From a bacterium (GTDB taxonomy: Bacteria > Bdellovibrionota_C > UBA2361 > CALJRW01): a DNA stretch of 64,000 nucleotides. A model generated the notes under the pieces. The model worked only from the letters and a program-made list of their open reading frames with translations. It ran no database searches and was not told where the DNA came from. Each line of letters starts with the position of its first letter. Position 1 is the stretch's first letter. This document shows, in pieces, positions 7,430 to 64,000 of the stretch. The position numbers and the translations under genes were made by a program. The stretch is taken from positions 270,150-334,149 of the forward strand of contig JANNBC010000024.1 of NCBI GenBank assembly GCA_031385045.1, given 5' to 3'.

Positions 7430-7646
7430 ATATACTAAAACCCATTGGGTATTTCCTAACAGCTTGGAAAAAATCTAATAGATTTTTCAGTGTTTTGGCT
7501 TTCAGTATATTTGTCTTCCCTAGTCCTCAGCCTTATAAAATAATGCTGAGGACCTCAGCGACCCCCAAGGGTCGCTTCAAGTGCTCCGCACTTGATATAC
7601 TAAGCGCCTTTGTATGTTCGGTAATTTTCAATGTCGCTTAGTATAT
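7430..7646. repeat. Composite array of five palindromic modules (MITE/REP-like)
   Basis: 7430-7510 (ATATACTAAAACCC...GGCTTTCAGTATAT), 7523-7553, 7557-7576, 7577-7595 and 7595-7646 (ATATACTAAGCG...CGCTTAGTATAT); parts recur at 4655, 49840 and 63860. Confidence 0.75.
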
Positions 7647-47163: not shown

Positions 47164-47268
47164 GTAATGGCTATTTATAAAAATGACTTACTATATACTA
47201 GGCGACTCAAGGTGGGCCACTCGGGTATTTAGCCTTACAAAATAAGGTAAATACTGGAAAACATAAAG

Positions 47269-47375
47269 ATACTAAAATCCCAATGAACTAAAAATGCGCT
47301 TCTTGTCCTCCTTAGCTTTAGCAAAGGGGAAAGTATTTTGCCATGTCCCAAAAAAACTAATGGATGTTAGTATAT
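47269..47375. repeat. TIR-bounded palindromic element of the ATATACTAAAACCCA family
   Basis: ATACTAAAATCCCAAT ... CTAATGGATGTTAGTATAT, with internal hairpin CCTTAGCTTTAGCAAAGG. Confidence 0.6.
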
Positions 47376-52299: not shown

Positions 52300-52324
52300 A
52301 AATATACTAAAACCCAGTATATTT
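52300..52324. repeat. Minimal remnant of the TIR family
   Basis: AAATATACT-AAAACCC-AGTATATTT; ATATACTAAAACCCA is identical to 7430 and 63860. Confidence 0.6.
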
Positions 52325-52352
52325 GTGTAACTAAGCCCTCAGAAATTTAGAA

Positions 52353-62329: not shown

Positions 62330-63847
62330 ATGCTTAGTATCAAAAAAATCTCCAACGTGCTCCTGATTATTGGCATCATGCTTTTAGGTGCTAATTGCGT
62401 AATCGCCGAAACTGATAATTTACGGGTACGTTCCAACAATGTACTCCCACCAAATTTTATTAGTAAAATCTCTGCTCATCAAGAAATACCGATTAAATAT
62501 AAAACTCAGCTTTATATTCCTGGCCTTGGAAATATTAAAATTAGATTGACCCATGAGCGTTTCTTATTGGCAGCCCCAACAATTAACTCCAAGCTAGATC
62601 TAGGTCAAATACCAACTGCTTCACTTTATCAAGGTCAGGCAAGTAGCAAAAATGGGAACTTCCCAATAGCCGCACAAGCTGAAAAAAAAGCCAATCAACA
62701 CTATTTAAATTTAAGCTTTCTAACTCCCAAGCAAAATTCTAAATTTTACAATATTAAAATTAACTTCGATCGCCGAATCGCCAGAATTCACCAAAAAATC
62801 TCCGAACAGCCAATCAACTGCGCTCAGCATCATAAAAATAATTTGATTACAAGCGGAGAAAAGATTTTAAATCAAACGATAATAAAAAAATATCAACTGA
62901 TTGACTTAAGTCTAGATGCGGATCAAGCCTGGTATCAAAAATTTGGATCAAATTCCAATAATAAAATGCTCGCCTTAATCAATGCAACTGATGTAATTTA
63001 TGCTAATGAGCTTGGTCTAAAGTTTAATATTAAGAGATCCAATGTAAGTACTAACCAGAGTTTTGGCTCATTAAACGCCAGCTCTAAATTAAATAGCTTT
63101 TTAAATTTCACTGCTAACCAAAGCTATTTTGGAAAGTCTGATATTTACTATTTATTTACTGGTGAATCGCTACAACTTGGAGTTGCCGGAATTGGAACAG
63201 TTGGGACGGTCTGCACATCCTTCGCTGTTCCGGCTGCCCTTTCTTCCTATCTTAACGATCAAATTACTCCTTTGGTAATCGCGCATGAGATTGGTCATGT
63301 AATGGGTGCCGATCATGATCAAACTGGCAATTGTGGGAGCAGCAATTCTATTATGCAAGCAGTAATTGCCCCGCCATACCCCAATACCTTTTCTAGCTGT
63401 AGCAAAACAGCCTTTGCCGAGCAATTACTTAAATATGGGAATTGTTTTGATGAAGAAGAAAGCTCTGCACCAGAGGATTCAAAAATAATTTCACTTACTG
63501 GTTCTGTTTCTAAGCTTGGCGTGATCCGATTTAATCTTGACCTTAAAGAAGATTTACTAAATTGTGCAATCACTCTGCGAGCAGCGAAAACTAGGACTAA
63601 ACTAAATTCGGCTCTTAGTATTGGAACATTTCCACTGGGCATCGGAACTTTATTAATCAAACGAAACCTGTCAGCCTCAAGTATCAATCCGAAAGCAATT
63701 GTCTATCTGCGAGCTAATTTAGAATGTTCTGGGACTTCAGCATCTAGTAACATTATTAAACTTTCCCCATATAAAATTATTTCATCAAAAAAAGTTTCTA
63801 CCAGTTCTTGGATTAAACTTTTAAAAAATAAATTAAAAAGCTTTTAA
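62330..63847 (+). CDS. Secreted reprolysin-like (M12B) zinc metalloprotease
   Basis: Signal peptide, AHEIGHVMGADHD, Met-turn SIM, FSSCS; prodomain Cys in INCAQH. Confidence 0.88.
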   Translation: MLSIKKISNVLLIIGIMLLGANCVIAETDNLRVRSNNVLPPNFISKISAHQEIPIKYKTQLYIPGLGNIKIRLTHERFLLAAPTINSKLDLGQIPTASLYQGQASSKNGNFPIAAQAEKKANQHYLNLSFLTPKQNSKFYNIKINFDRRIARIHQKISEQPINCAQHHKNNLITSGEKILNQTIIKKYQLIDLSLDADQAWYQKFGSNSNNKMLALINATDVIYANELGLKFNIKRSNVSTNQSFGSLNASSKLNSFLNFTANQSYFGKSDIYYLFTGESLQLGVAGIGTVGTVCTSFAVPAALSSYLNDQITPLVIAHEIGHVMGADHDQTGNCGSSNSIMQAVIAPPYPNTFSSCSKTAFAEQLLKYGNCFDEEESSAPEDSKIISLTGSVSKLGVIRFNLDLKEDLLNCAITLRAAKTRTKLNSALSIGTFPLGIGTLLIKRNLSASSINPKAIVYLRANLECSGTSASSNIIKLSPYKIISSKKVSTSSWIKLLKNKLKSF

Positions 63848-63859
63848 TCTTAAACTCTA

Positions 63860-63878
63860 ATATACTAAAACCCATTAG
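63860..63878. repeat. Terminal repeat of the palindromic family, forming the IS flank
   Basis: ATATACTAAAACCCATT is identical to 7430-7446, followed by AG (CT on the minus strand). Confidence 0.7.
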
Positions 63879-64000
63879 AGACTCTGTTAATAGTCAATAA
63901 AAAACAATTAAATGTTTTAAATATGTTGAGTTAAATATCGGTCACTAGACCATTGTTTTCCGTCCCGCACCATCGCATTTAAAGTAATTAGTAGCTTTCT
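63877..64000 (-). mobile_element. Right end of an IS110-family insertion sequence (truncated by window edge)
   Basis: Recombinase C-terminus, then an outward-facing TTGACT (63897-63892) 13 nt before a CT at 63878-63877. Confidence 0.7.
63917..64000 (-). CDS. IS110-family transposase/recombinase, C-terminal 27 aa only
   Basis: Reads RKLLITLNAMVRDGKQWSSDRYLTQHI*; RKLL..LNAM.RDG..W is a typical IS110 C-terminus. Confidence 0.75.
   Translation of the reverse strand, partial: RKLLITLNAMVRDGKQWSSDRYLTQHI

Follow-up and report, generated by a model that had tools for sequence, protein, structure and literature searches.

The DNA at the very end of the analysed stretch belongs, with a probability of about 0.93, to an intact IS621-like element of the IS110 group, which is present in about ten copies in its genome and which is aimed by its bridge RNA at a CT site within a repeat of the genus. 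The window, i.e. the whole stretch of DNA that was analysed, comprises 64,000 nt of assembly GCA_031385045.1 (contig JANNBC010000024.1, here called C54, positions 270,150-334,149 of the forward strand). By analogy with IS621, the element would form a circle, in which the -35 box of the right end and the -10 box of the left end come together across the CT core and drive the expression of the bridge RNA. This RNA, with a length of approximately 190 nt, would be composed, in this order, of a 5' stem-loop, a target loop and a donor loop, the latter reading the circle junction and the former a 14-bp site that lies 17 bases inside one end of the repeat of approximately 215 bp. The DEDD/serine recombinase would then join donor and target by strand exchange at CT, with the result that copies collect between genes.

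Element boundaries and recombinase

The window ends together with contig C54, and 124 bp of the element are visible at its edge. The left end and the far flank of this particular copy are absent from the assembly; other copies within this genome served to read them. The edge of the window holds the following features:

63917..64000, minus strand: last 27 codons and stop codon of a gene for a bridge recombinase of the IS110 group, truncated where the contig ends (translation; identity to the copy on contig C10)
63877..63916, minus strand: right end of the element, short at 40 nt with the core counted (as measured on the identical C10 copy)
63892..63897, minus strand: putative -35-like hexamer TTGACT (consensus match; brought to a distance of 17 nt from the left-end TATGTT by circularisation only)
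63879..63885, minus strand: left half of the donor site (together with the core, 9/9 match to the left donor guide)
63877..63878, minus strand: CT core at the right junction (CT at 10/10 right and 5/5 left junctions)
63872..63876, minus strand: right half of the target, AATGG (together with the core, complementary to the 7-nt right target guide)
63860..63876, plus strand: outer tip of the repeat copy into which the element inserted, thereby splitting it (12 nt downstream of the stop codon of the adjacent gene)
62330..63847, plus strand: neighbouring gene for an M12B (reprolysin-like) metallopeptidase, intact despite the insertion (Pfam scan)

The original prediction had read a coding tail on the minus strand at this edge, and 63917-64000 indeed translates to RKLLITLNAMVRDGKQWSSDRYLTQHI followed by a stop. 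Likewise, the succession of TTGACT (63897-63892), 13 nt, the CT core (63878-63877) and the repeat tip was found on this strand as described. An outward promoter of the right end was considered as well and rejected, because the window contains one consensus site compared to 1.6 expected.

The last 125 bases of the contig have ten matches in the genome, eight of them identical and two with one extra base. Nine of the matches are situated at contig ends and one is internal, on contig C10; the nine contig breaks in the assembly are explained by the element copies sitting there. Further sets of 5-12 contig ends, at least five in number, likewise have sequence in common within the set and point to other multicopy mobile elements. 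The complete copy on C10 (4540-5777, minus strand) is 1,238 bp long and bounded by CT cores at both ends, with 241 nt upstream of the probable start codon and 40 nt downstream of the stop codon. Its ORF carries PF01548 (E 7e-21) and PF02371 (E 3e-18), both above the cut-off, which establishes the protein family and bears out the IS110 recombinase that had been postulated upstream of the visible end. A search of solved structures gave only two matches, IS621 and ISCro4, with the D/E/D/D/S residues aligned. In the numbering of the 323-aa protein, D15, E58, D100, D103 and S240 align with D11, E60, D102, D105 and S241 as named for IS621 (PMC11208158), and these catalytic residues are invariant in 8/8 of the closest proteins. 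An affiliation with the IS1111 group was rejected, because that group demands a long right end bearing the guide RNA, whereas here the right end measures 40 nt and the guides lie in the longer left end, whose 241 nt hold the bridge RNA fold. As far as sequence permits testing, every feature of the IS110 group was found and the assignment of the element as an IS110-group insertion sequence is confirmed (for the handshake bases, see below).

When the two ends are joined in silico at the core, TTGACT is followed after 17 nt by TATGTT, so that the predicted -10-like hexamer is present at the expected spacing as a sequence match. A promoter formed across the circle junction has been described for IS621 (PMC11208160), and the hexamers may form such a promoter here. 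In a public sequencing run, which may be the source run of the assembly, a contig of 1,256 nt covers the element at a depth of 112.6 versus 13-15 for the flanks, i.e. approximately 8-fold. The circle junction was not among the assembled contigs of four DNA runs, a kind of data that cannot show the absence of a circle.

A close copy of the insertion sequence was not found in 40 genomes of relatives, in which the best matches reached 44-46% identity in four genomes of the same order; in the same-genus genome the identity was 28-31%. A pattern search of the genome contigs based on a single protein gave 114 pattern hits, none of them a relative, and an alignment query was then used. The comparison with Rfam gave 0 matches on the element locus.

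Bridge RNA and its guides

The predicted fold of the left end comprises a 5' hairpin plus two stem-loop modules that contain internal loops, as in the IS621-type bridge RNA (z = -3.27 and 0/200 shuffles for the two-loop fold; z = -3.79 and 1/200 with the 5' hairpin included). The first loop contains the left target guide GAAAAACCT, which matches the left flank of the C10 copy at 9/9 positions and the other four left flanks at 8/9, as well as the right target guide CCATTAG, a 7/7 complement of the core and the right target. The second loop contains the donor guide AGAGTCTCT, matching the donor at 9/9 positions, while the right donor guide was placed by analogy from a match of only 4-5 nt that is not independently significant. 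Among 20,000 dinucleotide shuffles, matches to left target, right target and donor arose singly 1,092, 267 and 34 times, respectively, left and right target together 19 times and all three 0 times. Hence, the proposal that unpaired loops of the left end match the repeat around CT-AATGG was substantiated. The same is true for the programming of the RNA against a lineage-specific repeat, since the guides spell the repeat tip and the repeat occurs in only one of the 40 relatives, namely the same-genus genome, in which no close copy of the insertion sequence was found.

The register of the guides was compared with that of related elements. Altogether 165 related loci were used (160 from an alignment-based search and five from the search for the insertion sequence in relatives), 73 of which had both junctions by fixed patterns; 50 distinct RNAs were left after requiring single junction candidates and a match to the donor guide. 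In the same register, the right target matched 5/5 in 36/50 RNAs (mean 2.2, maximum 8 in 1,000 shuffled pairings) and the left target at least 5/7 in 38/50 (shuffled mean 12.0, maximum 21). Because these RNAs are kin and were filtered for the donor-guide match, the shuffle test overstates the significance; it validates the register and provides no probability. None of the other 49 RNAs has a target within five mismatches of the target of this element. The closest relative for which DNA is available, L038, whose protein is 58% identical, shares the donor but differs in its target guides, which match its different target, and its guide offsets are 68, 91 and 135 compared to 68, 92 and 135 in this element. 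The stem of the target loop differs from that of L038 by compensatory changes in 4 of 14 pairs, a value that stems from two sequences only and was reached in 30/500 shuffles. Among the related loci, ten copies of an IS110 element in two genomes (L128-L137) showed very loose left-target matches to one guide, with a better right guide.

The target repeat and the sites of insertion

Besides the copy that was split at the window edge, the window contains three further copies of the repeat:

7430..7646, plus strand: full-length empty copy with CC at the core position (folds as DNA, z = -9.16, 0/200 shuffles as stable)
47190..47375, minus strand: degenerate empty copy with intact CT core and 12/14 guide-spelled bases (inner boundary approximate)
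52302..52330, plus strand: repeat stub, tip only, without target core (17-mer match)

The 17-mer of the repeat tip is exact at 7430 and 63860, has one mismatch at 52302, where 15/17 had been reported and 16/17 is correct, and has two mismatches at 47359-47375 on the minus strand. CC in place of CT in the copy at 7430 was seen as reported, and the apparently empty CT site at 47357 has kept its core. Allowing up to three mismatches, there are four matches in the window compared to 0.59 expected, a number which was reached in 2/100 shuffles; thus, the window alone gives modest evidence and the case is carried by the genome-wide data.

Throughout the genome, the target repeat is a palindromic and intergenic sequence of about 215 bp. 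BLAST searches with five seeds resulted in 61 merged loci, fragments included, and full units span approximately 210-250 bp. Most of the 24 listed unit entries, at least one of which is an artefact of a tandem pair, begin with TATACTA and end with TAGTATA, i.e. they possess terminal inverted repeats, and among them an A precedes the unit in 21 and a T follows it in 16 entries. The unit folds into successive hairpins (z = -9.16) and is built from two modules, which are each bounded by TATACTA and TAGTATA and are also found alone. Out of 37 chosen repeat sites 36 were intergenic, according to a crude ORF map covering 88% of the contigs concerned. Three repeat loci gave one chance-level match in Rfam, far below the gathering score, and matched no family.

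The repeat had been called MITE-like, and the terminal inverted repeats agree with this designation; the MITE identity itself is not established, as neither an empty paralogous site nor a partner transposase of the IS630 or RAYT kind was found in the genome. Duplication of TA at insertion is a trait of IS630-type MITEs, and tandem copies of the repeat share one TA, which is compatible with TA duplication. The genome gave no match to PF13358 (IS630-type), and the matches in two other genomes, G001 and the same-family G002, were without repeat-like ends in the DNA examined. On the other hand, the repeat is multicopy, intergenic, palindromic and lineage-restricted as REP-type sequences are. A flanking of Y1 (RAYT-like) genes by the repeat was not observed, no listed repeat copy standing beside either of the two such genes of the genome. 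The repeat may be either a MITE or a REP. The two Y1 genes correspond to about 310-320 aa (L036:357-1322 and L037:898-1824, both minus strand), the first with a short direct repeat and the end of another element downstream. Head-to-tail tandem units or a divergent variant of the first module were observed at C7:108311-108738, C2:33919-34278, C2:72687-73011 and C27:8-258, three of them joined via a shared TA. A related type of palindrome, which has TATAGTA termini and shows a comparable succession of hairpins, is present at the left ends of C60 and C43 and also in G002 (L200:770-830), there about 600 bp from an IS630-type fragment.

The repeat adjoins 9/10 right and 5/5 left ends of the element in the genome, and at all five left ends there was, as anticipated, a second CT beyond which the repeat carries on. 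AATGG follows each of the ten right ends; nine go on as repeat tip and then run into different unique sequence in every case, while the right end on C10 continues into the 5' part of an ORF for an Stf0-type sulfotransferase. The assumption of intergenic safe sites thus does not hold in every case, one of the ten right ends lying in this ORF. The bias for the repeat is also evident from the CTAATGG sites, of which 9/10 occupied versus 9/486 unoccupied ones are repeat tips. No empty site in the genome matches all 14 guide-spelled bases. Six empty CT sites have a single mismatch, five of them in the repeat, and one repeat variant fits the left guide but mostly carries CC at the core, as at 7430.

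In view of this bias, it is possible, though rather doubtful, that the same system chooses its target not by sequence alone and additionally needs the hairpin of the repeat, as reported for ISPpu10, for which a preprint names a target stem-loop as second determinant (10.64898/2026.03.19.712850). Bases immediately past the right target are able to pair with the left target, which places the target in a small hairpin of the repeat's fold with the core at its neck, and 26 off-repeat CT sites with at most two mismatches are empty. However, one right end lies in a gene without the repeat tip, and the empty single-mismatch sites, one off-repeat compared to five in the repeat, indicate in a test of low power that sequence alone can explain the bias.

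It is very improbable that a single insertion into one repeat copy took place and that the element was moved passively from then on as a composite of repeat and insertion sequence, a reading that is largely refuted already. The nearly identical 16-bp tip at the nine repeat-flanked right ends and the MITE-like ends of the repeat would fit such a history. In contrast, the five left flanks represent different repeat variants next to a near-identical element (core-proximal and loop sequence set the C10 flank apart from those on C25, C26 and C28), the site is spelled by the RNA of the element itself, and one copy is located elsewhere than in the repeat. Finally, an assembly artefact of two collapsed repeats is hardly credible: the assembly breaks at the element in 9/10 right ends and the join on C10 is probably chimeric, but nine right ends lead, via the repeat tip, into unique sequence that is different each time, and the position of the junction agrees with the CT that the RNA predicts.

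RNA-guided insertion into the repeat has to be reconciled with the C10 copy, the sole complete one, which has the repeat on its left and a gene on its right. No copy with the repeat on both of its own flanks was seen, nine copies being cut by contig ends. Contigs C12, C53, C58 and C59 each have an end that lies within the repeat, about 50 nt before the site is reached; these ends show the repeat variant also present on C25 and C26 and probably represent additional left flanks, in which case there would be nine left and nine right repeat flanks. Judging from this count, the join on C10 is most likely chimeric and combines flanks that belong to two different copies. A 4,177-nt run contig supports the junction on the gene side, and no contig of the four runs spans the element or the whole C10 stretch. 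Alternatively, the succession of repeat, element and gene may be a real rearrangement or a half-match event of the kind treated in 10.64898/2026.08.31.748434. The 5' part of the sulfotransferase gene is located at C10:4331-4597 (L002:2332-2598, plus strand) beside ABC-transporter-like genes, and its truncated frame reads into the element; its 3' half was not found by the Pfam scan, by a query in the genome G001 or by tblastn with seven weak homologues.

Known systems and the handshake bases

The targeting of repeats by IS110 elements has already been published for IS621, ISPpu9 and ISPpu10. The mechanism is thus known, and the present element is a clean new example of it. A paper on this element or its repeat was not found in the literature covered, which consisted of main texts with few subscription journals; the supplements of PMC11208160 may list the clade. 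The element adds one more natural pair of guide and target to those known for bridge recombinases; its target is AT-rich, its right guide comprises 7 nt and its fresh copies are many.

IS621 of Escherichia coli placed 144/173 experimental insertions in REP elements (PMC11208160; PMC11208158; PMC13626964). According to these reports, it shares with our element the DEDD and serine recombinase, the CT core, the long left end that encodes a bridge RNA of three parts, the promoter at the circle junction (here a sequence match) and the insertion into a palindromic intergenic repeat. Nevertheless, the two proteins are only distantly related (127 bits), the left half of the donor and the target are different, the right target guide comprises 7 nt compared to 4 nt in IS621, and a genus-restricted repeat of about 215 bp takes the place of the E. 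coli REP. ISPpu9 and ISPpu10 of Pseudomonas putida are IS110 elements that, like the present one, insert at one position of a palindromic host repeat (PMC1525189; PMC12288879), and a duplicated CT was reported for ISPpu10 homologues (10.64898/2026.03.19.712850). The partner sequence of the hairpin lies 5' of the left target in the preprint on ISPpu10, whereas the possible arm lies 3' of the right target here. IS4321 and IS5075 of the IS1111 group reportedly insert into the terminal repeat of a different mobile element and would be the nearest parallel, should the repeat described here be a MITE. Characteristic of the IS1111 group are inverted repeats in subterminal position and a right end that is long, compared to the 241-nt left and 40-nt right end of this element.

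A further difference concerns the handshake bases, which in IS621 form one Watson-Crick pair before and three after strand exchange, thereby driving insertion, and which are called highly conserved (PMC13626964). We scored them in 38 of the 50 RNAs, leaving out seven with two candidate right donor guides and five with a weak right target guide. The base in the target loop pairs with donor position 7 in 37/38 RNAs, which confirms the register. The base in the donor loop pairs with target position 7 in 30/38, with nothing in six and with its own donor in two, i.e. in this element and in L038. Regarding the change in pairs on insertion, 33 of the 38 RNAs gain, four score 0 and this element alone is negative, going from two pairs to one compared to one to three in IS621; it lacks the gain of handshake pairs after strand exchange that is described as highly conserved, though it does not formally define the IS110 family. 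In IS621, the exchange G166A pairs with donor position 7 and strongly lowers recombination in E. coli (PMC11208158), and it is part of an excision-favouring design (PMC13626964). The donor-loop base of the small clade of this element and L038, which pairs with its own donor, is a natural equivalent of G166A. It seems unlikely, though conceivable, that the element is therefore a bridge recombinase tuned toward excision or copy-out, offset by the 7-nt right target guide, as a natural exception to the rule that wild bridge RNAs favour insertion. Since one target was scored per element and the insertion rule was derived from one enzyme, drift of the handshake base is at least as likely as tuning. 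No natural element with such an own-donor arrangement was found in the literature, again main texts with few subscription journals, including 10.1101/2025.05.14.653916. If functional, the arrangement would allow the factors that determine in which direction bridge recombination runs to be tested on a natural case, a question of importance for genome editing of the excision type. The element has reached about ten copies despite a handshake arrangement that is unfavourable for insertion by the rules of IS621.
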